Shown one piece after another: positions 4,409-51,020 of a stretch of DNA of 64,000 bases (position 1 is its first letter; every line of letters begins with the position of its first letter). Below the pieces are notes generated by a model, which was given only the letters and a program-made list of their open reading frames with translations, was not told the DNA's origin and made no database searches. The DNA comes from a virus: IMG/VR virus record IMGVR_UViG_3300035670_010029; one strand, 5' to 3'. Both the position numbers and the translations under genes were made by a program.

Positions 4409-4419
4409 TTGTTTTACCT

Positions 4420-7400
4420 TTATTGTTTAGTTGGATCTGGAATACTACCTTCTGACTCCGCATTTAATCTACTGAATGCCGATTGTACTTCTCTTCTTAT
4501 TAAACCACTTAAAGGACCGTCCAATAATTCTTGCAGCGCTTGTGCTCCATTAACAACCACTTCTACCTTATGATTACCATTAACATTAATTTCTGGTGGT
4601 AAGTTTAGCTTGCTTAACTGAGTAATAAATTGATCAAATTTAGCTGTAAACTGGCCAAGACCATCTAATCCTCCAACACCATTTGCTTGTACTCCATTAT
4701 TTACACCGCCACCAGCCACGATCTGTTGCATAATAGCGCCAAACTGAGTCATAACCTGATTAACGCCTGTTAATAGGGTTCCAAAAATTGTTAATTGTTT
4801 ATTGACATTTCCAGCATTGCTAGGATCAAATGCTGCTTGTGCTGCCTGTGATACTCTCTGCTGTGTCTGAGGAGATATTTGTGGCATAGCCGCTTGTGCC
4901 GGAGCTTGTCTTTGAGCTGCCACAGGAGCCGCACCAGCAACCAATTGTCTCATAGCTACTTGAGGAGAAATGCCTTGTTCACGAGATATCTCTAGTGCTT
5001 TACCTCTTTGATTTGCTATTTCGCGTGCTTTGGCCTGAGGAGATTTTGCTAATCGCTCTTTTAATACTTCAGAGCCTCTTTCTTCGGAACGCGAACGTAT
5101 TGCGTCTTGTCTGGCTTGTTCAGCTTGTCTTTTTGCTGTCGCTGCTGCTATCCTCTCTGCTTTTATTTTCTCTCTTTCTGCTTTAAGTCTTTCGACTTTT
5201 TCTTCTTTGGTTTCTTTTGTGCCTTCAGACAAATACGAGACAGCACCACCTTTGTTATAGGCCCCACTATTAATCTTGTGTAACAGAGGAAGGTGTGACT
5301 GGGTAGCTTGTCGATTAACAACAAATTCACCAGGAGTAAGCATTGCGGGGATGGTGTCTGTACCTCTTGGTTGATACGGTACCAACATACCTTCGGATGC
5401 ATAAACTGTATCGGGTATGTCTCCTAATACTTGATCTGGTTTAGGTTTGGGCTTAGCTTTATTCTTTTTATCAAAACTGGCCAACCACTTACTACGCATG
5501 GAGTCATTCTTAGTGTTGTAGTAATTATACTCTCCAAGTTTACGTTGATAATAATTATATGCGCTCTTAAATTGCGACTCGATACCTTTTGCAGCAAAAA
5601 TAGCTCGTGTACTTCTATCTCCTTCTTCTATGGTTCTGAGAGGACTGCCATCTCGATTAACAATTGATGGCAAACCACTAGCATCATTAAAAGTGTCATT
5701 TGTCGTAGTTTCAGGTATTGTTGCTGGGCTAGACGATTCAGAACCAGGCCAGGGCATACCTCCTTGGTCGGAATCTACTCCTAAATATTGACGAGGTTTT
5801 CCTCCTTCGCTTAAATAATTAACCAATCCACCAAACGACTTATAACTACCTCTACCTAATCCAGCATTATTTCTTGCATTTTGAGCTAGTTTCTTTTGTT
5901 CTAGTGTTTGAGCATTTAATAGCAATTTTTTGTTTTTTTCAACACTGCCAGCAACAATAGAGCCTCCATCTCTTTCATCAAATGCAGTAAATCGTCCGCT
6001 TTCATTTTTTTCTACGAATTTATTGTCTTGGAAAGATAATGATTTTTCTTTGACATACAAAGCAGGAGTTTTGAACAGGTTTTTGATTGGTGGTTGTGGT
6101 GCGGATCCGTTCTTTATTAAATTGTTTAACCATTCTTTATATGTAAGCTCATCATAATAGTTTGGTAATTCACCATCAGCAATCGGAAGCTCTTCTGGAT
6201 TCATTACGGGAGGAGCGCCCATTGCTATTTTTTGCATAGCAGCATCATTATTTGCTTGTTCTGGCTTGTTTATTATTGGATTATCTGGACTTGGAGGATT
6301 AATATTGTCTGGTGTCTTCGATACTGGTTTGGTATTTTGATTAGCTAATTGAGTAGCGGCATATATTCCTCCCAAGGCTAAAGCTCCAACAATATATTTT
6401 TTTCTACCTCCTAATATATTTTTTGTTTTATTTCTAGTCCAATCGAACCAAGACCTATCCTCAAACTTTATACTAGGATCATCTATACCTTTGCTTAAGG
6501 CTCGTCTACCCTCTTTGGATAGCCCTTGTTCCGCATCTGCTAACGCTTTTGTTCTAGTTTGCTGCCAAACGGTGTCAGATTCCATATCTTTGGATATAAT
6601 ACCTTCAATAACGTCGTCATTGCGAGACACTTTCAAAGGAGGGCCTAAATCTACAGACCATCCTTGTTTCATAGCCTTGTCTGTAAACTCTTCTATGCCT
6701 GAGTCCTTATAAAGAATAGCTTTAAGAGCATCGCTATCAGACACACCACTACTAATAGCATCTTGATAAGCTTTTTGTGTAGCCGTATTGTTGCGAATAA
6801 AATTATCAATAGAGTCAATTCCAAATTCTAGTTCTTTTTCAACATTATCTATATAAGCATTGATCCTATTTGACTGAGCATCTTGTACCATAGCCTTAAA
6901 CTGATTTAACCTGTCTTCTACTAATAATCTCTGTGCTTTAGGTAGTTTAATAATATCACTATTATCAGATGCTTTAGTGGCCAGAGAAGCAGAATCGGTT
7001 ACATCATCAGCTTTATTGGGAACGGAGACGGTTTGTGTGGCAGTTTTTGTCCCAGCATTTCTGTTTGGTCTTAATTGTTTAATAGCGTCACCAAAAGATG
7101 GAGCATCTTCTAGAATTTTAGCTGTTTGAGGATTAACAGCAGCTTCAGCAAAAATATCCAAATTATCTATAACAAAACCGAGTTTATTCGCGCCCTCTCC
7201 CAAATTATTTAACCAACTTTTGAATGTTGGCATAGCTTCGCCAGCAGCAATAATAGTCTTAGCTATACTCGGGGTAATATTTGTCCCCAAAGAAGATATT
7301 CCTTTAACAACATTACCGATCAATGGCAGTTTTTGTGCGCCGCTAACCATTGATCCAACATCAGATAATCTATCTACAACGCTTAATGCTTGTGCTCCTT

Positions 7401-10400
7401 TACCAGCTAGACTTGTTCCTGTGCTAAAACCCATACTAGACAAGGCTTGCGCTGCTTGAGAAGCAACAAAACCTACTGTTTGAGCACCTTCGGTAATAGC
7501 AGCAGCGCTTTCTCCCATGCCCTGTCTTACAGACTCTACTCTAGCCGCATCCCCTACCTGAAGAGCGGTTTGTTCACCTGTCTGAATTGGTCCACTTCCA
7601 GCTAAGGCTTGACCTAACTCTACTGTACTATAAGCTCCTTGTACTAATGCTTGTTCGCCAACCTGAGCAAATGCTTGTCCTGCAGCTTGTCCTGATTCGC
7701 TACCAAGCAAATACGACCCTCCCTGTACAGCGCGACCAGCCACAGAGATACCAGCACCAGCTACCACATTAGCAGCCCCGTAAGCTGCTCTACCAGTAGC
7801 CTCTCCCACTCCTCCTAGCCATCCTAGTCCTGCTATTAGCGGATTTTTACTTTGTATCCATAATTTATTTTGTGCCGTTCCGCCATCTGCTAAGTAATTA
7901 ACAATACCGCCAGAAGACAAAGTGTTACTATTAATAGCTTTTAATAAAGGTAGATTTTTTTGAGTTGCTGATCTATTGACTACAAATTCTCCTGGCGTTA
8001 ACATAGCAGGAACAGTATCTGTCCCTCGTGGTTGAAAATTAACTAAGTTTGCTCCATTCTGAGCATATATTATTCCACCCATAGCCCTATTAACTGGTTC
8101 GGCCACTGCTCCTCTACTGGCAAACCATGATAAGCTAGGTAGCGCACCGAATGCATTAGCAAAACCAAAAAACATATGTGCTTGCATAGCATCGTCATAA
8201 TATTTTTGTCCATCATTAGCAAAAGACGCCGCAAAATTACTCATTCTGGCAGCGTTATCCGGTTGCGCCATAGCATCAAAGAAATAATCTTGACCCACCC
8301 AATTACCTTTGCCTCCATACCAATTCATGAGTCTATATAATCCTTCTCTGATGAAACCTAATGTTATTTGATCAAAATATGGCATACCATTAGGACCACG
8401 TAAATTAAACAAATCATCTCCAAATTTTTGTATTAATCCTGATCTAACTTTTGTTCCATTAAATTCATTATATGGATTAAATAATACCTTTACTAAATCA
8501 TTAACCGTAGCATTTTCTGGAATGGCACCCGCTAGGTTTGTTGGTGTTAGTGTGCCATCTCTACCAACTACTTTAATTTGGGTTCCTTGCAATTGGTTGC
8601 CTAATATATTTTTCCAATCAGGACTTAATTGTAAACCAGCTACTTTGCCGGCTCTTGCTGACATGCCAAAACTACGAAAGACTCCAGCAATCGGCGCTTT
8701 AGCATCATAGAATTGTTTTAATAAAGCGGTGTCTCCTCCAGCAATAGCACCAAAAGCGTTAGCAGCACCGCTGATCATAGTCATAATATTATCTAGAGCA
8801 TTATATGATTGGATACTATTTGCTCTGTTTTGCAATTGAGAAACATACGTTCCGGCTTGATTCAAAATAGAGGACATATATTGAGAGGCTCCTTTAGGAT
8901 TACCTCCTAAAGCTAACCTAATAGCCTGCGGAGCGCCAGCATTAGACAACCATCCAGCAGAGACACCGGGAAGTCTTAATCCTCCAAATAAAGCCATAGA
9001 ACCCCTAATTAGAGCTGCTGTAGCCTGTGGCAGATCCGCATCGGTTAATACAGAACCTTTGGTTATTTTAGACTGATCCACCTTACCAGCAGATAGTGAC
9101 ATTTCTTGTTGAAACTGTGCTAGCTTATCTAGTACAAACTCGCCTATATTCACAGATAATGGCTGCTGGCTTATATCGGTAAATACATCTGCACCTGATG
9201 AGATACTACCTAAATATTTAGTTAAAGACGTACCCTGACCAAACGTTAGATTAAGTTGTGATGCTACTTTAGCTGCTTGTTGTTCAGCGTTGGGGTCTTT
9301 ATTAACTCTCATCTTTATTAGGTCTTGGAAATCCTGAAGTAGTTTTGGATCATTAATACTAGAAGCATTAATAATATCATTAGGTCCATATTGTTTGGCA
9401 GTAAACAGTCTTCTTTGGGACTTGTCTAGTGTGTTAAACAGCGTGCCCACTATGTTATTTGGTAATAGGGTGTCTATTGTTCTATTTGGATCAAATTTAC
9501 CAGTAGTCGCATCATAAAATTGACCCGTATATTTCTCATATGCTATAGGAACATCTATGGAAGGATTTTTGCCATTAATGGGTATTGGTAATGTTAATTT
9601 AATGTTGTCAGATATTAGGCTGCTAGATACCACGCCCTTGGCATTCAGAGTATTTTTTTTCGCCTCGTCCATAAACGTTTGACCAAGATAATCTTCTATG
9701 TTGCCATTGATCATAACTGGAAATGACTTAGAAATACGATTTATTTCATCTGTTAATACGAATGGCTTACCTAAATTAAATTCTGGATCAAATTTTGCCG
9801 GTGGGGCTCCTACCAATCCAAACTTAACTCTATCTCTTCTTGCTCTTTCTATATTAGCTTGTACCGACTCTATAGCTGTTCTAAACGACGGTTCTAATGA
9901 TGGTTGAGCCACAACAGCACTACTCGCGCCTTGAGTAATAAGCTCGTCTAGTGGAGACAATTCAGAGCCAGTTAAAGAAATATATTGTTGTGTATTATTA
10001 AATAATGCAGATAGCTTGTCTCCTAGTGCTTGACCAGATCCGTCATCCACGTAACCCAACCTGCCTTGTAAAAATTCTAGTGTGTTTTTATATAGCTCAT
10101 AGTTTGGTTTATGATTTTTTGTATTAGCTTCGTCTATTTTAAATCCTGGTAAAATATGCTGCTGTTTCGTCATTGGCTCACTTACAAAAGACGGGGTTTG
10201 TCCATTGTGTGGTTCCCAGCTTTCCGAACTCCATTCTGTGTCAGCATATGGACTACCAGTAACAAAAGACGGTTTGTTAACGGACACCGCCATTGCCATT
10301 CCAGGAGCCCAGCCGGCCGGATTGTAAAATGCTCTTTTATAATACCAAACTTTAAAAGCTTGACTTTTTTGTATTTGATCGGAGCTGGCCCCTATATAGG

Positions 10401-13400
10401 GTTTATCAAAAGACACCCCATAACTTTTATCTACTAATGTAGATTCCCACTTATTGGGAGTAGGATCTGGAAAATCTGCTGTGGTTGGTGGTTTATCTCT
10501 ATATAAAGATTTATCTAGTATGCTTTCTGGTTTTGGTCCGCCATCTATACCAAGTAGCATAGTTTTAACTTTGTCTTGATATTCTTTTTCTTGGGCTTGA
10601 AAAATTTGTTTACCGGTAAACGCACCAAGCCCTAAATACAAACTATTGTTATCTTTAACTTTTGCTAAACCACCACGAATCCTAGACGAAGCTTGTGCTG
10701 CAGCGTCGTTCTTTGCGTAATCATACTGATCCCTGCCTTGCTTCACTATTGTTGGCGTTGCGCCAACTCTCACCGAACCCATTGACTTGTCTATAATATT
10801 ATCAGCATTTAGATCAAAAGAGGATGTAGGCAGTGCATTAGAAGCACCAAAAGATAATGTGTAACTATTTGGCAGATCATATATATTACTAGAACCTTTT
10901 TGCCATATTTCTGCTGCAGAGTCTGTTGGTTCAATAATTGGTTTTTCAGTCAACATGCCTTGTTGTTTGATATTGTCTGGCTTTCCCCAGTTTGTGATTA
11001 ATCCTCCAGCGTTATAATATCCGACACGGCCACCCGATTGTAAGCTGTTATTATTAATTTGTTGTAGTAATGGCAGGTGTTTTTGTGTCGCTGATCGATT
11101 AATAACAAACTCGCCAGGAGTTAACATCGCCGGTACGGTATCTGTTCCTCTGGGCTGAAAGTTAACCAACTGACCCTCCGCAGCATAAACTAAACCTCCA
11201 GTAGCTATGCCGGCAACTGGTGGTACCGCTCCAGCTCCTCCTACTGGTGGTTTTGGTTGTTGAGCAATAGATACGAGGGTATTGATGTTTCGTCCAATAT
11301 CGGATAGCTCTCTATTTTGAAATGTTAAAATAGTATTGGTCAAACCATCTATAATAGCTTTGCTGTTTTTGGACGCAATATCGTTTGCCAAATTCTGATC
11401 AAGCTGTCCTAGTAATCTAGTAGCCGCTGATTGTTCCGCTATGGCCTGATTATAATATTGTATAGCTGCGGCAGTCGCTGGATCTTGTTCGGGATTTCTT
11501 AACGAGTTTAAAATTTGTTGAAACATCGGAGAGACCCCCATCCCCGACTCTTGTAGCATAGTTTCTAATACGTTAGCTCTTGTATTGTTGGCTTGTTGAT
11601 TATCTCCTAAAAATGGCAAAATATCCTGTAGTGCTCCTAATGTGTCTTTTCGCTCATTAGCAAAAGCTGTTTGTGCTGCTCTCATTGCTTCCATTGCAGA
11701 AGCACCATTATTAATTGCATCTTGATAAGCTTTTTGGGCTCCAATACTATTTTGTATAGTATTTTGTTGTCCATTCATATTTCTTTGTAGTCTATACAAA
11801 GATTGGTTTAAAGACTCTAGTTCATCGGGAGTGCTAGTAACTACTTTCTCTAAGAAACTTATTCTGCCAGTTGCTTTTTGTTGAGCTTCTTGCATAGCAT
11901 TCATAGCAGCACTAGCTTTTTCAGTATTATTAGCCATCTCTTCTAAAGCTGCTCTGTTTTCTCTTAGAGAAATATTAGTGGCTTTAAGATCATTGTTAAA
12001 TCTAACAAAATCTTGAACACCAGCTGGGCCTTTCTCTGCCGACTGCTGAACAGACGACTGTTGAATTTCTCTGGTTCTATTGAGTTTAAGGACGGCATTG
12101 AAAATATCCGCTGGATCCGTGATTCCTCCTGTTTGTCTACCAACAGAAGCATTTCTTTTAGCAAAAACATCTGCTACAGATATTGTTCGATTTAATGTTT
12201 TTGATAACTCTAACTGAGAGTCGGCCGTAATGTCTATAGACTTTCTGGATCGTTCTCTAGCACTAATTTCTAAATCAATAATTTTATTCAAGTTATTAGC
12301 ATACTGATTAAGAATATTTTGATAATTTTGTAAGGCTTTGATAGCCACAGACTGAGCATCTTTAGCTGTCTCTATAACAGAATTTAATCCAGCCAATTTT
12401 TCTGATAATTGAGCAAAATCCACTTTATCATCGCCGGATTTTCTCAGATCTACCAATGTACTACCGACTTCTTTAGCTAGTTTATCTGCTAATTCTGGAG
12501 GCAAGCCTAAACCCTTAAGCTCAGCTCTTATGTTTTTATCAACGGCCCTAGCAATAACTTCGTTGGAAGAATCTGGTCCTTGGTTTTTTAGTGTATCATT
12601 AATTGTAGACATAACTGTATTTTCTACAGTCTCGCCTAAATTCATTAGTTGTTGCATCTCTGGCTGTCTATTACCAAACAATGATCCGGCTGAGGATTGA
12701 GCTGCTGATACTCGTCCTGCTCCGTATGATCTTGGATTTTCAATAATATTCGCAGATGCTAGATCTATATTTCCTACTTTTGCCTGGCCCTGCAAAGCCG
12801 CTGTTGTTAGATCTATATTTTCTGACATAGACTTAAGAGAGAATGCTGTTGCATTAATGGCCTGTTCCATATTAGTAAACATTCTTTTTAAAGAACGCGT
12901 ATATACAGAAACCATAGCTCCTAAGTTTTTCTGATCTTTTTCTCTCTGAGCAACAGCTGCTGCTTGCCTGGTCTTATTAGCTCCCTCTATAGTAATTATT
13001 TCTTCTATTAGCTCTTTTTTTCTCTTCTCAGTTAAACCAGTACTGAGTTCTATCTGTCTTATTTGCTTATTAAGAGCCGTGTCTGCATAAACCAAAGATC
13101 TGGCAAAATCATCAAATTCTGCACTGCCTAAAATATCTCCTACGTTTTCTCCAGATTTAATACGAGCTTGGATTAGCTGATTAATACCTTCTGCTATTGG
13201 TTGAAAAGATTGACTAGATTCTTGTGCTTGAGCACCGACCATTTTACCAGCTTTAGCCTCGTATGTGTCCGCTCCGCCAAACAATGTACGAAAATATTCT
13301 ATTGTTCCTTCTTTTTCTAAAACCTGAGATCTTACTGCTGCTTGACGAGAAGCCCCATTGCCTTGTATCGAAGAAAATAGAACATCCAATCCATTAATCC

Positions 13401-16400
13401 AACCAGCACTAGCGGTATCTAGAGTTCGTGTTCTAAGATTATCTGCTGATCTAGAGGCATCAATTAAATTTGACTGTATTGACTGTCTTAGATTGACTTG
13501 TGTCAAGTCTTGATTCAGCTTATCGAATTTTTCTGATATACCATTTAAAGCTTGTTCTATTTTATTTTTGGATAATTCTATATAAAATTGTCTCACTCCG
13601 TTATAAGCATCAAGAGCAACTTGCCCCAAAATAGCAACCACCTGCACTGCCTTAGCGCCTCTCAATAATCTGGATGCAAAGCCTGCAAATCTACTATTTG
13701 TGTTGCGTAGGTTTTGTGTGAAATTATCTAGTTCACCGATAGCTGCTTGGGTATATGAAAAAGCTTGCGAACCTCCTCTAATACCACCAGAGATACCTGC
13801 TTCAATAGCACTAGATTTAGCATTAATAGAATCGGCGATAATATTTCCAACGGTGATGACACCAAAAGATAGGGCTAAACTAGCCTGTCTATCAAAATTT
13901 CTCTGCTCATCTGGACCTCTTTCTCCTCTAGAAGCAGCCGCTTGTTCTATAGCTGTTCTGCGAGCCCTAATTTCTTCGTTTATGGCTCTAACTTGCTCTT
14001 GTGCTTGGTCTTGTGTAATTCTTCCGGCTCTTAATTCGGCATCAATAGTAGCTCTGCGTGTCTGGATATATCTTTGGTCCATTTGCTCTAGTGTTCGCGC
14101 ATCTCTAGTAAGATTTTGTAATACTCGTGCTAGGTCATCTCCGGTAGCATTTAACGTACTAAGATCTATAGAGGTTCCTAATCCACCTCCCGTGGCTATG
14201 TCTTCATATGCAGTACGACTTCGTACTGCGGCTCCTGCTCTTAATTCTGCTTGTACTTCTTCTTCTGTTCTGGGCGATCCGCTAGTTCCTGGAGTAGTAC
14301 GTAAAACATTTTCTTCTGCTTGTCTAAGAGCTTCTATTCTACCTTCTACAGCATCTAATGCGTCTTGAATAGCTTGTCCAGTAATATTTCCTAATCTTTG
14401 TTGTATATCTAATTCTGCTTGTGCTGCTCTATTAGCGTTATTTATGGCTTGTTGTAGGTCATACAATGTTTCCGCACTTGCTCCAGCCGCACGAGCCATG
14501 TTAAAATCAGCTTCTGCAGCTCTTCTAGCTTCGGCAGCAGTGGCCTGATAGCTTCGATTTAATAATCTGGCAGATTCTGATCCACTGACACCTAGTTGTG
14601 TTAATACGTCTGCTAGTTGAGTTAATGCTGTGGTAGCTAAAGTAGTAGCTCCTATAGTGTCTGCATTAATAACTTCTGGTCTAGCTGATGGCCCTCTGGA
14701 TCTACCGCCCAAAAAGAATCTTTCTACTCCAACAGCTCCGCCCCTATTTAAACCCAAAGCTTTTGTCGCTTTTTCTCTTATTACAAAACTACCAACTGGC
14801 AAATTAGCTGGTATACTATCACTGGTACCTGTACCCGGACCCTTAAATACGCTAATACCGCCATCAGCAAATCGCCCCATACCATTACGATCAGCCTGAT
14901 TCATTTTATTTAATTTGCCATAACCAATTCTTTTAGCAAGCTTGGGTGGTACATAAGCTTCACCATTGCTTACTAGAGCCGGAACCGTGCCTCCGTCTGC
15001 TAATCCTATAGCTTGTTCTTTGTAGTATCTATCAAATTCTCCACGGGCTTTTTCAAACGCACTCCCATTAAGTGTTCTTTTAATTTCTGTAGGAATATTA
15101 TCTGGTAAGCCAAAGAATTGGGCAGCTCGTCCCAATCCTCCTGGAAAATCTATAGCCCTATTAGACTCTAAAGTTTCTATAGGAGGAAGATTAGCTCCTA
15201 AAATAGCTAAAGCTTTTTCAATAACGGCACCCTCAATATTTCCTTGTCCCATCAGCTCATCTAATTCTGGTTTGGCTTGCGGCTCAGTATATAAGAAGCC
15301 AGACTTTTTGCTTTTTTGAACAGCTCGTATATTATCTAAGCTATCATCAATTAATTTTTCTGTTTGTGCTAAATTTTGTGCTTTAGCTCTTGGTACTTTA
15401 ACGCCTTCTCCTCCAACACCAGTAATGTCCGAGGCTTGGTAAGGTAATCCAAAGCTTTGTAAAGATTGAGCTAATAAGTCTACAGTACTAGCGGGTCTAG
15501 CGGTAAGTATTCGTGTGTTTTTAATAAACTCTGGATCAGCATCTATTAATGTTTTAAGTTTAGCACCCAAACGTGTAAGTCTACCCCCTTTTAGATATTC
15601 TTCAACAACGGTTCTGTCTGAATATCTGGGAATGTCTGGCTTTCCTTCTTCGTTAAGAATATCGGTACCAGAAACTAAAGTTTCATCAAAATCAAAAACT
15701 AATTTTTCTTTACCTCCAAAAATTTTGGTATATTGTACATTTTCTGCAAAGTTTCTAGCAGCTAGTGCTGTTTCTCTGCTCATTTGTTGTGCGGCTGGTA
15801 GGTATTCTTTGTCAAAACCTTTTATAGTGGCATAGATAGTTTTACTACTTTCTGGCAGGACCCATTCGTTGGTGTCACTGTAACCCATTGGCAATAAGCC
15901 GGCTATTGCTACTTGTGTTAGACTAGCTATTCTTTTAGCTTCAGCCGCATCACTCTTGCCCGATACGAATAATGCTCTATTGACATAGTCTTTAGCTATT
16001 TCTATCCCTTTATTTGCTTTAATATTATTAGCATTTAAAACAGATCGTGTTCGACTATCTCCGGCACCAATACCTAATATGGTTCGAACTCCGGCAGGTC
16101 CACCCAAACCCCTTAGTTGTTCTAGCAATGTTTCTTGAATACTTTGACCTTTGGTTTGAGCCAAAGCAGACACCCTGTCTCTGATTCTTGGTGCCTCTTT
16201 AACAGCTCCTGCTTCCGCAAATTTTTGAATCATACCGCCTAAAGAAAATCTTGGTTTGCCCTTTCGTTTTTTAATATCTTTTGCCCATTCGTACATCGAA
16301 CCAAAACTATCGCCTTCTATGTCCTCAACAGCATCTTCGCTTAGATACTTGTCCATGTATGCTTTAGTCAATACCATACCATCAATAACCGTAGGCTTAC

Positions 16401-19400
16401 CATCTTTGGTATAGCCCATGTTCGAACCACCAGCGTCGATCCAATGTAATCCTCGTTCAGCTAATTTACCCTGCAATAGCTCTGCATCTTTCATGCCTTT
16501 TTCTGTATCAGAGATTCTTACTTTGTCTTGTATTGCGGCTGTTAATTTACCAAAAGTCTTAACTTTTCTATATCCAGAAACATGCTCCATCCCTTCGGGA
16601 AGCTGATAATTACCAATCTCTTTAATTTGTTTTTTACGGAAGCCTACATCCTCAGCTATTTGCTGTATTCCAAATCCCGTGCGAGAAATTTTTAACACTT
16701 CGTTACCTATATCAAAAGACACATTTTCTCCACCGGCTCCCAGTACTTTTGCTGACGAAACACCATATTCATTTTCTATTTGGGAAAGATACTTAGGTAA
16801 TCCTTTAACGGCTAAAATTTCTGGCGTCACTTCTCCAAAAAAAGTTTTATTCGTAGTAGAATATGTCTGTAATGCTGCTAATAATTTAGAGACTGAAGAA
16901 ACCTTGTCTGTGGATTTTTTAGCTTTTCCACCCACTTTATATTCCTGTCTTTTTATACCAGTACTACCCAATAATTCACTAAGCGTACTGTCTAAAACAC
17001 TTTGTAGTTTACTATCAAGAACAGGAGCTTTTTGCACTAAAGTTGTTAAAAACTCTTCTTTTCCATTATCTTCTGTTCTGGTTATATGAGCTTGTTCGAA
17101 ACCAGCCGATAATAATGTTTGATTCACACCGGGATTGATCGGTCTGTATTCTCTGGCTTTTTTAGCATCATCAGAAGCCTTGATATATGAAGCTAGTTCT
17201 TTTTCCATTTCTGGATTGCGCTTTTCTGGATTATCTCTTAGTCTAATGTTTTGTAGCTGAGCACTTTCCAAAAGACTTTGTTTATATTTGCGTCCATACA
17301 CCACGTCTGCACTAGTATATCCTCCGCCATTACCAGAAGATAAAGCATCAAAAGCATCTGCCAAACCATCATTGTCCGTATTGAATAGAAAATCAACTCT
17401 TTCCCTATATTTGGAAAAACTTTCTGCTGAACGAGCCCTTAAACCACTAAACAATTGGTGTGTTAATTCGTGATACAATACGTCTTGTCCTGGTTTATCA
17501 AAAGCTGTACCTAACGATATACTGCCTCGTCCGGTAGCTGACATTGTTTGCTTCTTAGACTCAACTGCGGCTTCTATTGCTCTGCGTTCTTTTCCTTTGA
17601 TATCCGAAATTTTCTTTTGTAAAGTTTTTATTTCATCAAAAACGCTGACAAAAGCTTCTCTGTCGTATGAAAAAGACCCATCATCAAAAGTTTCAATAGG
17701 GGTTTTTAGAATTTTATTTTGTAATTTCTTTTTTTCTTCTACCAACTTCTCATAACCAAATAAGTCTTGTTTATCTTTGTCTGTGTATCCAAAAACGCTT
17801 AGGTCCCAACCTTCAGAGCCACGACTACCTAACGGAGAATCATTAAATAGTCCTCCTCCTATCACTTTTCTACCTATACTACCAGCGTTACCAAAATCTA
17901 TCTGTGCCGGCAATGCAACGCTCAAATCTTCTTGTGGCAAACCTATAAATTTGGCAAAATCGCCTATACTTTTTAATAAAGAATCTCGTTTAACCTTACC
18001 TTTAAAAGAAGCCAAAAACGCCGCACGATCAAAAGGCTCAGTCATTCTGGACCCAACAGCTTGGTCGTCTATAGATATGCGTTCATCTGTAGGGACATTA
18101 CTTGCTAGTTGTTTCCATTCGGCTGCTTGTTGTTCTTTTATTATTTGTTTAGCATACGCATTGGTTATGCGGCGTGGAAATTTTGTTTCTCCTGTGCCGA
18201 AAGATTCCTGTGTTTGTTTAACTCCACCAGGTGATCCTGTCATAAATTTTTGAATGAATCCACCAACAAATTTTTCGTTAACTACCTGTTGTTCTGGATT
18301 CTGTGTTCTTTTCTTTTGCAAGAAGTTGAGGACTTCGTCAAAAGACCCACTATAAATGACCTCAGATGCCCCTTTGTCTCCGTGCTCAAACACATCATAC
18401 CATGTTCGTTTAGCATTAGCGCTGTCATAAAATGATTTGTTTTCAGCCCATGTATATTGTGATTTGCCGCCTTCAGCAAAAGCTTTAATTTGACCACCTT
18501 TGATAAAACCTGGTGTTTTCTGTTGTTGTTGCTTATTAATAAAATCATAAAACTGTTTTTTGGTATCGCCAGCCCAGTAATAGTCCAGGGTTCCTATATT
18601 AACGTCGTCGATTTTAGGCGCAGGAAGGTTTTCTTTAAAATATCTATTAACGCTTTTTTTCTCTATACGATATCTTAATAATTTGCTAATCAAATCAGCA
18701 TCATCTGTTTTTGTAGTTCTAAATTTGACTTCACCTATTCTGCTTATAGCATTGTTCTTAAGTCGTTTAAGTATATCAACAGGATAGTTGGTTTTATCGC
18801 TGGCTTTCTCCCATTGGCCAGACAGTTTTTCTATGAGCAATTGTTCATATGCTAAACCCCAACGACCTTCTGCACTTTGTAAACGACTAATAGAATCTGA
18901 TGTTTGTTGTCCATAAGATTGTTTAATTTGTTTTTGTTCTGATCGATTTTTACCAGATAGCTCTCTCAATATATCTCGGTTCTTTTGACTAATATCTATA
19001 CCGGCATAGCTCTTATAGTGTCCTGAACCTTGTGCTGCTTGATTTTCTGCTGTATTCCATATTTTTAGAAAATCTTGATCCTCTAATTTAACTGTTTTCG
19101 GTTTTATTTTGATAGAGACTTTATCGTCTGCTTCTAAATTGGTTGAACCTATGGCTTTAGCAATAGCTGCTGCGCCTGATCTGTTTAATAGATCGGAGAC
19201 TAATACAGGTCCTCCGTCAGCATATCTGTTCATCCTAACCAAATTTCCCCTACCATACTTATTAACAGCTCGTTTATTGACGACAAATTCTCCAGGAGTC
19301 AACATAGCTGGTACACTGTCTGCGTTACCAGATCCTGGTACTATTCCTCCTCTGGCAAATCCGTATATACGACCTCCGTCTTGTGCTCTTCTAGTTCCTC

Positions 19401-20931
19401 TAAAACCCCCACCAAAACCACCAGCAAATTGTGTTAAAGCACTAACCCCCCTAAAAGCTGCCATAATACCGATTAAAGGTAAAACACCTTTGGTAGCATC
19501 AGCAATTTTGATTAGAGCGCTTGCAAGATCAAGACCCAATCTAACCATTGTTTTAAAGCCATCACTATCACCTACGCTTCTCACTAAAGCTGTAAATTCT
19601 TCTCTAACTTTTTGTATTTGAACAGCTAACGCTAGTTGACCTTTGGCCGCGTCTGTAGCTAATGATCCTTGTCCTTGTTGAGCTACCTTAAGAGCATCTT
19701 GAGCAGTGGCGAATTGTTGGATAAGAGGAAGTACTTTACCAATCTGACGGAAACCACCAAGCTCTTCAACTATTTGAGAGAACTTTAAGTCTCTAGGATC
19801 CAATCTGCCTAATCCTTCGGCCAATCTTTGAACAGCAACATAAGGCCCAACGAATTTACCCTCTAGATCAGTTAATTGAACACCATACTCTTTAAGAGCT
19901 TCTATAGTGTCGCCTCTTTGTATTCTGGTAAATATTGTTCTCAAACCAGTAGCAATAGTTTCTGCACTTTCGCGAGTAGTAGCTCTAATACTAGTAAACA
20001 CAGCCAAAAATTCGTTTAAGGCATCGGTGCCTGAACTAACTCCTCTACTAGCAGAAGCAAACACGCCACCAGTACGCTGTATAGCAGCAATAAGGTCGCT
20101 AGCTTCTACTGCAAACCCAGCCGCTACAGCATTGATACTACCTAAAGCCCCTTCTAGTTGATTGGCACTAATACCAAACTGTCTCATCAAAGCAATAGAA
20201 CCTTCTACTGTTTGATTAAGATTATCAAAAGATGGAGCTAATGCACTTTTAGCTAAGGCTTCTAGTGCTTTTCTGGTATCTCCCGCAGTAAAACCTGCCT
20301 GAGCTAGCGTTACCGATACTTGAGCCAAATCTTCTGACGCAACACCCATAGATGTAGATAATCTGGTAATCTCAGATGTCATACTACTCAAACTGGCTTT
20401 GCTTTCATTTGTTACCTGACTCAAACGAGTAATCTGACGATCAAATTCTATATATTGTTTTATACCGGCACTTAACGCATTACTAAATCCGTATATAACA
20501 GATGTCACAGCACTAAAGGCCGCAAATCTTCTTACGGCTAACCCAGCTTGTCTTCCGAAGTCTTCAAACTCGGTACGCGTTCTTGATACGGCCGCACTAG
20601 CGTTATTAGCACTAGAAGCCAACCTTACCATGGGAGCTTGTACTGTTTGCGGTAAATTAACATTACCAACCGATCTCATCGCAGCTGCCAAATTAGTAAA
20701 AGCTTGCGCTGCGGAGGTTGTTGACGATGTGGTTGCAGCTAGCGTGGTATTAAGAGTCCCAAGACTAGTATTAACTTGTCTGATTGATCCTAAAGTTGTT
20801 CTATTTATATTCAGATTAACATTAGCATTAATAGAACCAAGTTGTCTACGAATATTATTTACTATGGGACGAATATTGGTCGGCCCCCTAAGATTAATTT
20901 CTGCGGTTAAGCTGAATCCTCTTGCTGCCAT
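4420..20931 (-). CDS. Tape measure protein (TP901-like N-terminal core), 5503 aa, with embedded enzyme-like cargo domains
   Basis: The Ala/Gln/Leu-rich helical N-terminus has typical TMP motifs (LAQAGF, AAGFAVEASDL, ETIATGLRTIFTRI, LGGFRQIGK). The gene lies after the tube and chaperone genes, carries repeated DxVPAMLTPGEFV motifs, and has an AGGAG Shine-Dalgarno sequence. Confidence 0.93.
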   Translation of the reverse strand: MAARGFSLTAEINLRGPTNIRPIVNNIRRQLGSINANVNLNINRTTLGSIRQVNTSLGTLNTTLAATTSSTTSAAQAFTNLAAAMRSVGNVNLPQTVQAPMVRLASSANNASAAVSRTRTEFEDFGRQAGLAVRRFAAFSAVTSVIYGFSNALSAGIKQYIEFDRQITRLSQVTNESKASLSSMTSEITRLSTSMGVASEDLAQVSVTLAQAGFTAGDTRKALEALAKSALAPSFDNLNQTVEGSIALMRQFGISANQLEGALGSINAVAAGFAVEASDLIAAIQRTGGVFASASRGVSSGTDALNEFLAVFTSIRATTRESAETIATGLRTIFTRIQRGDTIEALKEYGVQLTDLEGKFVGPYVAVQRLAEGLGRLDPRDLKFSQIVEELGGFRQIGKVLPLIQQFATAQDALKVAQQGQGSLATDAAKGQLALAVQIQKVREEFTALVRSVGDSDGFKTMVRLGLDLASALIKIADATKGVLPLIGIMAAFRGVSALTQFAGGFGGGFRGTRRAQDGGRIYGFARGGIVPGSGNADSVPAMLTPGEFVVNKRAVNKYGRGNLVRMNRYADGGPVLVSDLLNRSGAAAIAKAIGSTNLEADDKVSIKIKPKTVKLEDQDFLKIWNTAENQAAQGSGHYKSYAGIDISQKNRDILRELSGKNRSEQKQIKQSYGQQTSDSISRLQSAEGRWGLAYEQLLIEKLSGQWEKASDKTNYPVDILKRLKNNAISRIGEVKFRTTKTDDADLISKLLRYRIEKKSVNRYFKENLPAPKIDDVNIGTLDYYWAGDTKKQFYDFINKQQQQKTPGFIKGGQIKAFAEGGKSQYTWAENKSFYDSANAKRTWYDVFEHGDKGASEVIYSGSFDEVLNFLQKKRTQNPEQQVVNEKFVGGFIQKFMTGSPGGVKQTQESFGTGETKFPRRITNAYAKQIIKEQQAAEWKQLASNVPTDERISIDDQAVGSRMTEPFDRAAFLASFKGKVKRDSLLKSIGDFAKFIGLPQEDLSVALPAQIDFGNAGSIGRKVIGGGLFNDSPLGSRGSEGWDLSVFGYTDKDKQDLFGYEKLVEEKKKLQNKILKTPIETFDDGSFSYDREAFVSVFDEIKTLQKKISDIKGKERRAIEAAVESKKQTMSATGRGSISLGTAFDKPGQDVLYHELTHQLFSGLRARSAESFSKYRERVDFLFNTDNDGLADAFDALSSGNGGGYTSADVVYGRKYKQSLLESAQLQNIRLRDNPEKRNPEMEKELASYIKASDDAKKAREYRPINPGVNQTLLSAGFEQAHITRTEDNGKEEFLTTLVQKAPVLDSKLQSVLDSTLSELLGSTGIKRQEYKVGGKAKKSTDKVSSVSKLLAALQTYSTTNKTFFGEVTPEILAVKGLPKYLSQIENEYGVSSAKVLGAGGENVSFDIGNEVLKISRTGFGIQQIAEDVGFRKKQIKEIGNYQLPEGMEHVSGYRKVKTFGKLTAAIQDKVRISDTEKGMKDAELLQGKLAERGLHWIDAGGSNMGYTKDGKPTVIDGMVLTKAYMDKYLSEDAVEDIEGDSFGSMYEWAKDIKKRKGKPRFSLGGMIQKFAEAGAVKEAPRIRDRVSALAQTKGQSIQETLLEQLRGLGGPAGVRTILGIGAGDSRTRSVLNANNIKANKGIEIAKDYVNRALFVSGKSDAAEAKRIASLTQVAIAGLLPMGYSDTNEWVLPESSKTIYATIKGFDKEYLPAAQQMSRETALAARNFAENVQYTKIFGGKEKLVFDFDETLVSGTDILNEEGKPDIPRYSDRTVVEEYLKGGRLTRLGAKLKTLIDADPEFIKNTRILTARPASTVDLLAQSLQSFGLPYQASDITGVGGEGVKVPRAKAQNLAQTEKLIDDSLDNIRAVQKSKKSGFLYTEPQAKPELDELMGQGNIEGAVIEKALAILGANLPPIETLESNRAIDFPGGLGRAAQFFGLPDNIPTEIKRTLNGSAFEKARGEFDRYYKEQAIGLADGGTVPALVSNGEAYVPPKLAKRIGYGKLNKMNQADRNGMGRFADGGISVFKGPGTGTSDSIPANLPVGSFVIREKATKALGLNRGGAVGVERFFLGGRSRGPSARPEVINADTIGATTLATTALTQLADVLTQLGVSGSESARLLNRSYQATAAEARRAAEADFNMARAAGASAETLYDLQQAINNANRAAQAELDIQQRLGNITGQAIQDALDAVEGRIEALRQAEENVLRTTPGTSGSPRTEEEVQAELRAGAAVRSRTAYEDIATGGGLGTSIDLSTLNATGDDLARVLQNLTRDARTLEQMDQRYIQTRRATIDAELRAGRITQDQAQEQVRAINEEIRARRTAIEQAAASRGERGPDEQRNFDRQASLALSFGVITVGNIIADSINAKSSAIEAGISGGIRGGSQAFSYTQAAIGELDNFTQNLRNTNSRFAGFASRLLRGAKAVQVVAILGQVALDAYNGVRQFYIELSKNKIEQALNGISEKFDKLNQDLTQVNLRQSIQSNLIDASRSADNLRTRTLDTASAGWINGLDVLFSSIQGNGASRQAAVRSQVLEKEGTIEYFRTLFGGADTYEAKAGKMVGAQAQESSQSFQPIAEGINQLIQARIKSGENVGDILGSAEFDDFARSLVYADTALNKQIRQIELSTGLTEKRKKELIEEIITIEGANKTRQAAAVAQREKDQKNLGAMVSVYTRSLKRMFTNMEQAINATAFSLKSMSENIDLTTAALQGQAKVGNIDLASANIIENPRSYGAGRVSAAQSSAGSLFGNRQPEMQQLMNLGETVENTVMSTINDTLKNQGPDSSNEVIARAVDKNIRAELKGLGLPPELADKLAKEVGSTLVDLRKSGDDKVDFAQLSEKLAGLNSVIETAKDAQSVAIKALQNYQNILNQYANNLNKIIDLEISARERSRKSIDITADSQLELSKTLNRTISVADVFAKRNASVGRQTGGITDPADIFNAVLKLNRTREIQQSSVQQSAEKGPAGVQDFVRFNNDLKATNISLRENRAALEEMANNTEKASAAMNAMQEAQQKATGRISFLEKVVTSTPDELESLNQSLYRLQRNMNGQQNTIQNSIGAQKAYQDAINNGASAMEAMRAAQTAFANERKDTLGALQDILPFLGDNQQANNTRANVLETMLQESGMGVSPMFQQILNSLRNPEQDPATAAAIQYYNQAIAEQSAATRLLGQLDQNLANDIASKNSKAIIDGLTNTILTFQNRELSDIGRNINTLVSIAQQPKPPVGGAGAVPPVAGIATGGLVYAAEGQLVNFQPRGTDTVPAMLTPGEFVINRSATQKHLPLLQQINNNSLQSGGRVGYYNAGGLITNWGKPDNIKQQGMLTEKPIIEPTDSAAEIWQKGSSNIYDLPNSYTLSFGASNALPTSSFDLNADNIIDKSMGSVRVGATPTIVKQGRDQYDYAKNDAAAQASSRIRGGLAKVKDNNSLYLGLGAFTGKQIFQAQEKEYQDKVKTMLLGIDGGPKPESILDKSLYRDKPPTTADFPDPTPNKWESTLVDKSYGVSFDKPYIGASSDQIQKSQAFKVWYYKRAFYNPAGWAPGMAMAVSVNKPSFVTGSPYADTEWSSESWEPHNGQTPSFVSEPMTKQQHILPGFKIDEANTKNHKPNYELYKNTLEFLQGRLGYVDDGSGQALGDKLSALFNNTQQYISLTGSELSPLDELITQGASSAVVAQPSLEPSFRTAIESVQANIERARRDRVKFGLVGAPPAKFDPEFNLGKPFVLTDEINRISKSFPVMINGNIEDYLGQTFMDEAKKNTLNAKGVVSSSLISDNIKLTLPIPINGKNPSIDVPIAYEKYTGQFYDATTGKFDPNRTIDTLLPNNIVGTLFNTLDKSQRRLFTAKQYGPNDIINASSINDPKLLQDFQDLIKMRVNKDPNAEQQAAKVASQLNLTFGQGTSLTKYLGSISSGADVFTDISQQPLSVNIGEFVLDKLAQFQQEMSLSAGKVDQSKITKGSVLTDADLPQATAALIRGSMALFGGLRLPGVSAGWLSNAGAPQAIRLALGGNPKGASQYMSSILNQAGTYVSQLQNRANSIQSYNALDNIMTMISGAANAFGAIAGGDTALLKQFYDAKAPIAGVFRSFGMSARAGKVAGLQLSPDWKNILGNQLQGTQIKVVGRDGTLTPTNLAGAIPENATVNDLVKVLFNPYNEFNGTKVRSGLIQKFGDDLFNLRGPNGMPYFDQITLGFIREGLYRLMNWYGGKGNWVGQDYFFDAMAQPDNAARMSNFAASFANDGQKYYDDAMQAHMFFGFANAFGALPSLSWFASRGAVAEPVNRAMGGIIYAQNGANLVNFQPRGTDTVPAMLTPGEFVVNRSATQKNLPLLKAINSNTLSSGGIVNYLADGGTAQNKLWIQSKNPLIAGLGWLGGVGEATGRAAYGAANVVAGAGISVAGRAVQGGSYLLGSESGQAAGQAFAQVGEQALVQGAYSTVELGQALAGSGPIQTGEQTALQVGDAARVESVRQGMGESAAAITEGAQTVGFVASQAAQALSSMGFSTGTSLAGKGAQALSVVDRLSDVGSMVSGAQKLPLIGNVVKGISSLGTNITPSIAKTIIAAGEAMPTFKSWLNNLGEGANKLGFVIDNLDIFAEAAVNPQTAKILEDAPSFGDAIKQLRPNRNAGTKTATQTVSVPNKADDVTDSASLATKASDNSDIIKLPKAQRLLVEDRLNQFKAMVQDAQSNRINAYIDNVEKELEFGIDSIDNFIRNNTATQKAYQDAISSGVSDSDALKAILYKDSGIEEFTDKAMKQGWSVDLGPPLKVSRNDDVIEGIISKDMESDTVWQQTRTKALADAEQGLSKEGRRALSKGIDDPSIKFEDRSWFDWTRNKTKNILGGRKKYIVGALALGGIYAATQLANQNTKPVSKTPDNINPPSPDNPIINKPEQANNDAAMQKIAMGAPPVMNPEELPIADGELPNYYDELTYKEWLNNLIKNGSAPQPPIKNLFKTPALYVKEKSLSFQDNKFVEKNESGRFTAFDERDGGSIVAGSVEKNKKLLLNAQTLEQKKLAQNARNNAGLGRGSYKSFGGLVNYLSEGGKPRQYLGVDSDQGGMPWPGSESSSPATIPETTTNDTFNDASGLPSIVNRDGSPLRTIEEGDRSTRAIFAAKGIESQFKSAYNYYQRKLGEYNYYNTKNDSMRSKWLASFDKKNKAKPKPKPDQVLGDIPDTVYASEGMLVPYQPRGTDTIPAMLTPGEFVVNRQATQSHLPLLHKINSGAYNKGGAVSYLSEGTKETKEEKVERLKAEREKIKAERIAAATAKRQAEQARQDAIRSRSEERGSEVLKERLAKSPQAKAREIANQRGKALEISREQGISPQVAMRQLVAGAAPVAAQRQAPAQAAMPQISPQTQQRVSQAAQAAFDPSNAGNVNKQLTIFGTLLTGVNQVMTQFGAIMQQIVAGGGVNNGVQANGVGGLDGLGQFTAKFDQFITQLSKLNLPPEINVNGNHKVEVVVNGAQALQELLDGPLSGLIRREVQSAFSRLNAESEGSIPDPTKQ
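5270..5375 (-). repeat. TMP internal module QPRGTDTIPAMLTPGEFVVNR..T..HLPLL (copy 5)
   Basis: Protein-level repeat, close to the copies at 7935-8040 and 11055-11160. Confidence 0.9.
7935..8040 (-). repeat. TMP internal module QPRGTDTVPAMLTPGEFVVNRSATQKNLPLL (copy 4)
   Basis: Protein-level repeat. Confidence 0.9.
11055..11160 (-). repeat. TMP internal module QPRGTDTVPAMLTPGEFVINRSATQKHLPLL (copy 3)
   Basis: Protein-level repeat. Confidence 0.9.
14760..14995 (-). repeat. TMP internal module, two divergent copies (VPALVSNGEAYV and GPGTGTSDSIPANLPVGSFVI) (copy 2)
   Basis: Same motif spacing as the other copies, but more diverged. Confidence 0.75.
15020..15250 (-). other. Second PD-(D/E)xK-like domain within the TMP
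   Basis: GAVIEKAL, then RAIDFP, then PTEIKRT, in the same E / D / ExK order. Confidence 0.5.
15290..15710 (-). other. HAD-superfamily phosphatase domain within the TMP
   Basis: All four HAD motifs occur in order: LVFDFDETLV (I), ILTAR (II), K of KAQNL (III) and LIDDSLDNI (IV). Confidence 0.85.
16250..16930 (-). other. Protein-kinase-like domain within the TMP
   Basis: Gly-loop VLGAGGENVSF, beta3 lysine VLKI, catalytic-loop-like WIDAGGSNMG (DxxxxN) and DFG-equivalent VIDG. Confidence 0.75.
16940..18230 (-). other. Zincin-like metallopeptidase domain within the TMP
   Basis: VLYHELTHQLF (HExxH at 17458-17472) plus a downstream KEEFLT helix that could supply the third ligand. Confidence 0.75.
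18540..18880 (-). other. PD-(D/E)xK nuclease-like domain within the TMP
   Basis: WGLAYEQLL helix, then NYPVDIL, then IGEVKF. Confidence 0.65.
19265..19345 (-). repeat. TMP internal module PGSGNADSVPAMLTPGEFVVNKRA (copy 1)
   Basis: Protein-level repeat at the end of the N-terminal helical core. Confidence 0.9.
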
Positions 20932-50177: not shown

Positions 50178-51020
50178 TTAAATCAGCAAAGTTTCCTTGG
50201 CTTTTTGGAGAAGATTTTGAAGAGTGGCTTCTGCAACCCTGTTTTTAAAATGATTATATGTGTCTTTGATCATTTGATGATTTGGGTCTCTCGTAATTTC
50301 TAACCATCCCACAAAATAATTCCATATTCTATCTTCTAAAATAAGAGGATATTTGACTCCTTCTGGTCTGCCAAATCTATGTACCCATTGTAATTGTGGT
50401 AAGCAAATGTTTTTACCTCCGTTTCTCCTAAATTTTTCTGCTATATAACCTTCTTCTGCTCCAAAACCCTTGAAATGACAACTAATGCCTGGCCAGTTTT
50501 CTTTTTCGAAAGAACATAGGCCCATACCCTGCATTTTGATTTCAAAAGGTTCTCCTTTAATATAGGCATCCTGATTAGAGTGCCATATACCATACATGTC
50601 TCCTCTCCACTCGTCCTTAAATTCTGTAGCATAATTTTGGAGATCGTCATACAACAATGGTCCCTGGATTAAGTCTTTGCAGTTGGGATGCTTTGCATAA
50701 TATGCTAATAAACTATCTAATGCTCCAGGTATTAATAATACATGACAATCTAAAATAAGAATATATTTACCAAGAGCATAGTTTACTGCTTTATATTTAT
50801 TGAATGAGGATATTGTATTTTGAAACGGAATGTATTTAATTAAACCGTTTGTCCATTGATCTACAAATTCTTTTGTTTTTTGTCCATACTTACTGTCTGG
50901 ATGATTATCTAAAATAATAATTTCTGTATCTAATAAATTATGATACATACGTAATGACTGAGTTGTAAAATATACACCATCATAGTCATCATACGTTGAC
51001 ATGGCAATGGTGAGCAGCAT
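50178..51020 (-). CDS. GT-A fold glycosyltransferase (GT2/GT27-like, DxH motif)
   Basis: LTIAMSTY, EIIILDN, ALGKYILILDCHV, MGLCSF, and GFGAEEGYI..GG..LP..VHRF. Confidence 0.85.
   Translation of the reverse strand: MLLTIAMSTYDDYDGVYFTTQSLRMYHNLLDTEIIILDNHPDSKYGQKTKEFVDQWTNGLIKYIPFQNTISSFNKYKAVNYALGKYILILDCHVLLIPGALDSLLAYYAKHPNCKDLIQGPLLYDDLQNYATEFKDEWRGDMYGIWHSNQDAYIKGEPFEIKMQGMGLCSFEKENWPGISCHFKGFGAEEGYIAEKFRRNGGKNICLPQLQWVHRFGRPEGVKYPLILEDRIWNYFVGWLEITRDPNHQMIKDTYNHFKNRVAEATLQNLLQKAKETLLI

Follow-up and report, generated by a model that had tools for sequence, protein, structure and literature searches.

A conserved double-glycine connector in a giant phage tape measure protein: junction of cassette exchange and candidate site of maturation cleavage

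The stretch of viral DNA analysed here (64,000 nucleotides (nt), IMG/VR record IMGVR_UViG_3300035670_010029; below, the window) encodes a giant tape measure protein in which a tandem double-glycine motif recurs eleven times. The question raised by this locus is what these doublets do. An earlier note on this DNA had proposed that they fall between domains rather than inside them, that they are protease cleavage or packaging signals releasing individual cargo domains, and that cargo modules may be swapped at them. The reading that we favour, tentatively and with somewhat less than even confidence, is that the doublets belong to a conserved connector peptide of tape measures, which separates swappable enzyme-like cassettes and provides candidate maturation cut sites.

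The doublets and their basic unit

All 11 doublets lie within one open reading frame (ORF) of the minus strand (positions 4420-20931), and each was found in its translation within about 40 nt of where the earlier note had placed it. The encoded protein is, by its sequence, a member of the PF10145 (TP901-family) tape measures: PF10145 matches amino acids (aa) 187-391 with an E-value (E) of 2e-23 and 83.7 bits against a cut-off of 33.2, and the N-terminal ~600 residues match several PHROG tape-measure families. The first GG pairs of the doublets stand at aa 519, 812, 890, 1565, 2064, 3245, 3300, 4285, 4341, 5034 and 5228, and single motifs occur at aa 570-574, 1331-1335, 1977-1981, 2021-2025 and 5173-5177. 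With a loose pattern (GG, any residue x, an aliphatic residue, 0-4 x, an aromatic residue, 2-4 x, G) the protein gave 11 matches, far above the 0.75 +/- 0.87 expected from 2,000 shuffles, in which the maximum was 6; a strict pattern gave 10 matches against 0.03 expected from shuffles.

Four of the doublets stand by themselves and separate cargo segments (Table 1); the other seven are not free-standing and form the edges of a repeated module of ~65 aa. We refer to the motif as the GG box, and to the two copies that flank the module as its N-box and C-box. A survey of 333 related proteins yielded 2,434 distinct boxes, in which the positions upstream of the pattern by which the boxes were picked are conserved too, with K/R/F/Y/L/M at position -3 and A/S/N at position -2; this consensus was held in 83% of N-boxes, 86% of C-boxes and 68% of stand-alone boxes. 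Because these two positions are conserved outside the picking pattern, the basic unit can be written as large (K/R/F/Y/L/M), small (A/S/N), x, G, G. A doublet is then a pair of such units, 3-6 residues apart, with I/V and an aromatic residue in the spacer, and the 'singles' of the earlier note are lone units.

A scan of the window for other GG-tagged proteins found none in the rest of its 64,000 nt: the strict pattern had zero matches in the remaining 15,463 residues of the window ORFs, and hidden Markov models (HMMs) of the box and of the module, run over all six frames of the window, matched the tape measure ORF only.

A connector module shared with lambda gpH

Self-comparison of the tape measure revealed six copies of the module, labelled M1 to M5 in Table 1, with M2 consisting of the tandem copies M2a (aa 1976-2026) and M2b (aa 2021-2076). 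The module HMM matched them with independent E-values (i-E) between 3e-18 and 2.8e-34, a range that includes the value of M1. The module runs from an N-box through a near-invariant core, D-[ST]-[VI]-P-A-x-L-x-x-G-E-[FY]-V, and a short helix ending in N to a C-box. In hundreds of proteins the flanking large-small-x-G-G boxes keep a fixed spacing on either side of the core.

M1 aligned to residues 710-785 of lambda gpH (E 0.015) and to two places in gp16 of mycobacteriophage Douge (E 6.7e-8), and the module HMM aligned to gpH 747-785 (i-E 2e-6 at Z=1). When the six copies were combined into a profile, it matched 22,884 protein cluster representatives at E<=1e-3, 923 of them at E<=1e-30, with up to 11 module copies per protein. 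The module was confirmed at 477 places in viral contigs and found in 171 phage records, mostly annotated as tape measures; among these are Gordonia phages with two matched places in one record. No Pfam model covers it; the Pfam model for lambda, PF09718, covers gpH 627-701, outside the module, which overlaps partly with PHROG 35029 and is otherwise uncatalogued. On the strength of these alignments, the repeats of the window tape measure are members of a lambda gpH-type module.

In every solved structure the module residues are unmodelled: lambda shows residues 818-849 only and Douge 1658-1699 only, and matches of the modules to the Protein Data Bank (PDB) fall only in the unmodelled parts of these two chains. 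AlphaFold2 modelling of one module as a monomer (69 aligned sequences) gave a predicted local distance difference test score (pLDDT) of 60.8 and a helix only (model residues 51-65), and in monomeric form the module probably does not fold as a globular domain of its own. A 'hairpin' label for the module was dropped, as this low-confidence model shows no hairpin.

Connectors at domain edges

The earlier note's view that the doublets fall between domains and not inside them was borne out by an AlphaFold2 model of cargo segment S2 and by the homology blocks of 101 relatives, which end at boxes. The model, covering aa 880-1345 and based on a 12-sequence alignment, reached a pLDDT of 80.6 and a predicted template modelling score (pTM) of 0.73, with aa ~910-1334 forming a compact body. 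In the tail that holds the aa 890 box pLDDT stays <50, and at the other end of the body confidence drops sharply on reaching the half box (aa 1331-1335). The residues of both boxes are invariant or nearly so in 12 relatives that are ~50% identical overall. Since these residues are conserved within stretches predicted to be disordered, the boxes behave as a functional linear motif. Taken with the homology blocks, the model shows that the segments fold independently and that the connectors occupy flexible linkers at their borders.

The HExxH motif of S2 is invariant in the same 12 relatives (H275, E276 and H279 of the model). S2, a domain of ~425 aa, had no Pfam match, and Foldseek and VIA-align searches of the PDB gave nothing above the helical background; it could thus represent a new metalloenzyme family. 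As only 20 of the 101 giant relatives carry S2, its HExxH domain cannot be the general processing enzyme.

Cassette exchange at the connectors

The giant relatives (P0122-P0222, n=101) are proteins of 3.3-7.9 thousand residues from viral contigs of up to 238 kb. They have a common backbone, into which cargo is set in differing sets and orders. The number of relatives covering the window protein varies along its length, from 97 over the N-terminal core and M1 to 23 over S1, 20 over S2 and 7 over S3, then 42-76 over S4 and M2, ~90 over the long central segment and M3, and 3-14 over aa 4400-5150; just past M5 it falls from 72 to 5. Each of these steps coincides with a box or module. Cargo order is also shuffled: S4 stands ahead of S2 in P0122, P0123, P0134, P0150, P0154 and P0164, and S3 is found at aa 6777 in P0136.

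Among the 101 relatives, 509 homology breakpoints were counted, of which 52% were no more than 10 aa away from a box or module, where 11% would be expected. The count comes from a re-run with low-complexity masking off and gaps of up to 40 aa bridged, which rules out a masking artefact as the source of the enrichment. For 22 randomly chosen family members, 9,432 breakpoints were scored; 36% had a unit within 10 aa, where 6.8% would be expected. The percentages carry no probability, as the relatives are not independent.

Three relatives contain blocks of 91-93% identity, 229-574 aa long, within proteins that are otherwise 33-61% identical to the window protein. In P0138, identity is 91% over aa 888-1335 against 58%, 46% and 33% elsewhere; it begins inside the aa 890 box and stops at GG 1334-1335, past which a full box comes next. 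P0132 is 93% identical over aa 1350-1578 and again over 1565-2077; the two blocks are parted at the aa 1562-1575 box by an insert of 380 aa, flanked on either side by a box, and the second runs as far as the C-box of M2. In P0144, a block of 91% identity covers aa 3-574, up to the C-box of M1. Such blocks indicate that single cassettes have recently passed between phages that are only distantly related. P0132 and P0138 were not found in IMG/VR at high identity.

Fourteen further copies of S2 were found in viral contigs. All end in a large-small-x-G-G cap and then continue into different neighbours; the cap has an intact G-G in 13 of the 14, while in the remaining one (L084) the second G is R. 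In three of the 14, the next neighbour is directly the core of the following module. The proposal that cargo is swapped at the doublets is thus strongly supported, by the shuffled cargo, the high-identity blocks bounded at boxes and the S2 copies alike, and these comparisons show the boxes to be points at which cargo cassettes are exchanged between phages.

Some of the giant relatives have precomputed Pfam matches to ADP-ribosyltransferase (PF03496), EF-hand or SHD1, or bear the source name thermonuclease. The cargo repertoire of P0122-P0222 appears from this to be large and varied.

Possible cleavage at the connectors and alternative readings

Under the favoured reading, the connectors would serve as recognition and cut sites for a maturation cleavage once the tail is built. 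Cleavage would convert the ruler into a train of separate pieces, enzyme-like cargo included, and these would exit through the tail ahead of the DNA. Going by the precedents of T5 pb2 and lambda gpH, cleavage at the connectors of this tape measure is plausible, if slightly short of an even chance.

T5 pb2 is cut after R1127 into pb2* and pb2C (PMC10038345). The site reads R-A-E-G-G, two hydrophobic residues, Y, x and G, with GG at 1130-1131, so that the cut, after the R, separates positions -3 and -2 of a motif that resembles the box and follows a hydrophobic stretch. R-A-x-G-G is invariant in five Demerecviridae tape measures of 37-70% identity. When T5-family and module profiles were compared with hhalign, the best local match paired the T5 site with the N-box (10 columns, E 0.24). 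The closest fit to the T5 cut-site motif is the N-box of M4 (aa 4282-4293); of N-boxes in general, 43% have K/R at position -3 and 67% have A/S at position -2.

Lambda gpH is matured to gpH* and gpHC after tail assembly, by a cut next to its module (Tsui and Hendrix 1983; PMC12617516). It loses a C-terminal piece of ~14 kDa, which leaves gpH* at an estimated ~78 kDa; the cut lies at about aa 690-730 in a glycine-rich region, and cut site and catalyst are both stated to be unknown (PMC12617516). The cut region is within ~25 aa of the gpH box. A hypothetical cut just ahead of the N-box would yield pieces of ~79.5-80 kDa and ~12.5 kDa, within gel error of 78 kDa for the larger. Hydrophobic stretch, glycine-rich stretch and box follow each other in the same order in lambda gpH, T5 pb2 and M1 of the window protein. 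Tape-measure cleavage has also been proposed for myophages, from six-fold versus three-fold symmetry (PMC11972413), and in TP901-1 the tail protein Tal is processed within a glycine-rich motif, where a linker meets an enzyme domain (PMC11409707).

Some other features of these proteins were recorded. In the Demerecviridae tape measures (L081, which is T5 pb2, and L106-L109) a downstream G-E-[HN]-G-x-E, previously read as a zinc carboxypeptidase motif, is also invariant, even where identity is as low as 37%. Lambda gpH (L082) ends in nine residues (aa 845-853) that look like a box, with GG, two residues including F, and a GGG run. In the window protein, M4 is flanked by aromatic/hydrophobic and glycine-rich hydrophobic stretches (aa ~4205-4265 and 4355-4410; positions 7700-7870 and 8150-8320, minus strand), which resemble the membrane-active stretches ahead of the lambda and T5 cut sites.

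Several points weigh against cleavage. The phage is uncultured, and no termini were observed. Pfam and PHROG scans found no protease domain in any window ORF, and the HExxH cargo is absent in ~80% of the box-bearing relatives. The residues at position -3 are basic in some boxes and aromatic in others, an odd mixture if one protease is to recognise them all; a typical cut site is shorter and less well conserved than motif and module, whose length and conservation would also suit docking or oligomerisation. Natural gene splits and protein ends give no sign of it either, with none of the 333 related proteins ending or being split at a box. The single module modelled as a monomer is of low confidence, as described above. 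As to T5, the module HMM had no match in pb2 and the hhalign score is likewise non-significant; the resemblance is at the level of the motif, short of established homology.

In a wider reading, box and module would be the recognition element of a general tape-measure maturation cleavage, coupled to tail assembly and shared by lambda, T5 and thousands of phages. In jumbo phages with giant tape measures, multiplication of the element would have made the ruler a polyprotein, cut in the tail into separately acting, exchangeable enzymes that are injected before the DNA. We consider this possible, though less likely than not.

The strongest alternative to a cut connector is an uncut structural joint, at which boxes and module would dock or oligomerise while the giant protein stays whole. 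Acting as strands, they might join three or six chains in the manner of a zipper, or attach to the tube lumen, to the hub or to assembly chaperones, and the junction pattern would merely mark where insertions are tolerated. We regard this as possible, though it is not the outcome we expect. A joint would account for the strong conservation across 12-65 residues, beyond the need of a protease site, and for a monomer that is not predicted to fold alone, as for an element folding on a partner; the order aromatic, small, x, GG, x, V/I, aromatic is, we infer, typical of tight inter-strand turns, and a joint would also fit the lack of any protease match in the window ORFs. However, the sole two tape measures with a mapped or approximately mapped processing cut have it at or beside this element, and enzyme-like cargo tethered in a 5,503-aa chain would presumably have restricted access to its targets.

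Boxes could instead be loading or export tags, read by the tail assembly chaperones or by some other factor, which would thread the cargo into the tube or put it in order there. The recurrence of one motif per cassette, in accessible linkers, agrees with such a role, which we nevertheless judge unlikely: the cargo is already a covalent part of the tape measure and no partner was identified. The tag is also confined to this one protein of the window and so does not mark separately packaged proteins, and nothing was found to support the packaging signals of the earlier note.

Even less probable is a linker that acts only in DNA recombination, in which the box-coding DNA would be a short homology patch and the peptide functionless. 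The coincidence of exchange junctions with boxes is what such a linker would produce, but the repeats within the gene encode the same residues by different codons. The cores of M3, M4 and M5 are 82-88% identical in protein and 68-75% in DNA; their longest identical DNA run is 8 nt, and their identical residues share a codon in just 36-46%. The difference of the module copies in DNA and codons makes a pure DNA linker unlikely and places the conservation on the protein. Positions -3 and -2 are conserved too, and lambda keeps a single module copy though no cassettes are swapped there. These comparisons of codons and residues show that it is selection on the protein that maintains the connectors. 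Chance or low-complexity glycine richness, to which the 9.1% glycine of the protein and its modest excess of GG dipeptides (60 observed, ~45 expected) might point, is refuted by the number of pattern matches and the fixed spacing around the core.

Annotated features and genomic surroundings

Table 1. Boxes, modules and other features of the tape measure gene, with positions in the window
Feature	Position	Strand	Evidence
Giant tape measure protein ORF, 5,503 aa	4420..20931	minus	single ORF; PF10145 and PHROG tape-measure families
PF10145 tape-measure core, aa 187-391	19759..20373	minus	Pfam; common to 97/101 giant relatives
Hydrophobic, then glycine-rich stretch before M1, aa 481-515	19387..19491	minus	read from translation
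Module M1, aa 516-577: N-box doublet, core, helix, single C-box	19201..19386	minus	i-E 1.6e-21
Stand-alone GG box, aa 809-822	18466..18507	minus	pattern; coverage by relatives falls from 23 to 5 here
Stand-alone GG box ahead of cargo S2, aa 887-903	18223..18273	minus	pattern; pLDDT <50
Cargo S2, aa ~910-1334: compact, mostly helical, invariant HExxH	16930..18204	minus	AlphaFold2
Half box capping S2, aa 1331-1335	16927..16941	minus	P0138 identity ends directly after GG
Stand-alone GG box between cargo S3 and S4, aa 1562-1575	16207..16248	minus	pattern
Tandem modules M2a and M2b, aa 1976-2076	14704..15006	minus	i-E 5.9e-19 and 3e-18
Module M3, both boxes, aa 3242-3310	11002..11208	minus	i-E 2.8e-34; coverage falls from 95 to 23 just past it
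Module M4, both boxes, aa 4282-4351	7879..8088	minus	i-E 1.1e-32; coverage falls from 96 to 3 just past it
Stand-alone GG box, aa 5031-5044	5800..5841	minus	pattern
Module M5, degenerate N-box without GG, intact C-box, aa 5172-5237	5221..5418	minus	i-E 6.7e-32
Conserved C-terminal segment, aa 5400-5503	4423..4734	minus	common to 35-43 relatives

Outside the PF10145 core, Pfam recognised nothing in the remainder of the tape measure. A PDB sequence search with 5,000 aa of it gave no match, and the ESM Atlas gave merely weak tape-measure leads (<0.9). A megablast search of 12 kb against cultured phages returned no match at the DNA level. By analogy with the hub-binding C-terminal helices of lambda, T5 and Douge, the conserved C-terminal segment is likely the tail-tip-binding end.

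The adjacent genes all lie on the same strand, and their products are fibre-like, having fn3, LamG, Ig-like and YHYH domains; the PHROG and Pfam scans found no protease, JAB, NlpC, C39 or M23 domain in these neighbouring ORFs. A second giant ORF (35441-49102, minus strand; 4,553 aa) has Ig-like (He_PIG) and cadherin-like matches and is probably a fibre or adhesin; it contains neither boxes nor modules. The 793-aa protein encoded at 26712-29093 (minus strand) combines fn3, Mtd_N (major tropism determinant N-terminal) and YHYH domains and is likely a receptor-binding protein. Among the fibre-like genes stands one for a family-2 glycosyltransferase (50178-51020, minus strand), around which, at 50-54 kb, G+C is raised to 0.45-0.47.

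Implications

The cut site of lambda gpH has been open since 1983, and the box offers a concrete conserved candidate element for it. By analogy with R1127/A1128 in T5, a cut between positions -3 and -2 of the N-box is predicted at about F733/A734 in lambda. The analysis also defines a widespread building block of phage proteins for which Pfam has no model, and it provides evidence at residue resolution that the tape measures in one family of uncultured phages of 100-240 kb evolve by cassette exchange at connectors. Recent mosaicism of this kind was not confirmable for tape measures in Smug et al. (PMC10684548). If the cargo is released, these phages would deliver a customisable protein set through the tail, and the polyvalent-protein idea would extend to the tail ruler.

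Comparison with known systems

The polyvalent proteins described for phages and conjugative elements (Iyer et al. 2017, PMC5512222) are giant injected polypeptides with several enzyme-like domains, proposed to be cut into units, and the window tape measure may work in a similar way; it has the HExxH domain. The polyvalent proteins differ in that their proposed processing relies on an embedded metallopeptidase rather than on a linker motif. Tape measures are not mentioned in that paper (0 occurrences), and no Pfam polyvalent-protein domain was found in the window tape measure. At least one confident non-ruler fold and exchangeable cargo are present in it; neither Pfam nor the fold search placed any domain in a known enzyme family. 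Compared with zincin-like peptidases, S2 has the invariant HExxH but neither a Pfam nor a fold match, and it is restricted to the minority of relatives given above.

Gp96 of Thermus phage P23-45, a cultured siphophage, is a 5,002-aa tape measure with an annotated metallopeptidase domain. Module, core motif and box enrichment are all absent from it, and it is a precedent for size only.

The double-glycine leaders of C39 export were considered and rejected: the motifs here are internal and repeated, and no C39 or transporter domain occurs in the window ORFs. Tal of the lactococcal phages TP901-1/Tuc2009, a tail-tip protein, is cut in a glycine-rich motif at the junction of its structural and enzyme parts, and Gly-to-Arg changes block the cut (PMC11409707). 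It is, however, a tail-associated lysin whose motif is a G/N/S run without the aromatic/aliphatic pattern, and no homology is claimed. Autoprocessing of the Tal type with M23 was rejected likewise, with no PF01551 match in the tape measure or its neighbours. The absence of the defining partner domains thus sets the connectors apart from both the double-glycine leader and the Tal/M23 system.

T5 pb2 has its box-like cut motif after a hydrophobic stretch and ahead of the fragment kept in the tip, but lacks the P-A-x-L-x-x-G-E-F-V core. Douge gp16 carries two module copies, at residues 963-1031 and 1411-1464; it differs in its length of 1,699 aa and in having no described cargo array, and residues 1658-1699 are the part modelled (PDB 8ZDO; PMC13033339). 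Lambda gpH has one module and no cargo, against six modules and cargo in the window protein, yet the module itself is the same: it spans residues ~733-785, with the N-box GG at 736-737, the core from 747 and the C-box GG at 781-782, and it follows a hydrophobic and glycine-rich stretch just as M1 does in the window tape measure.

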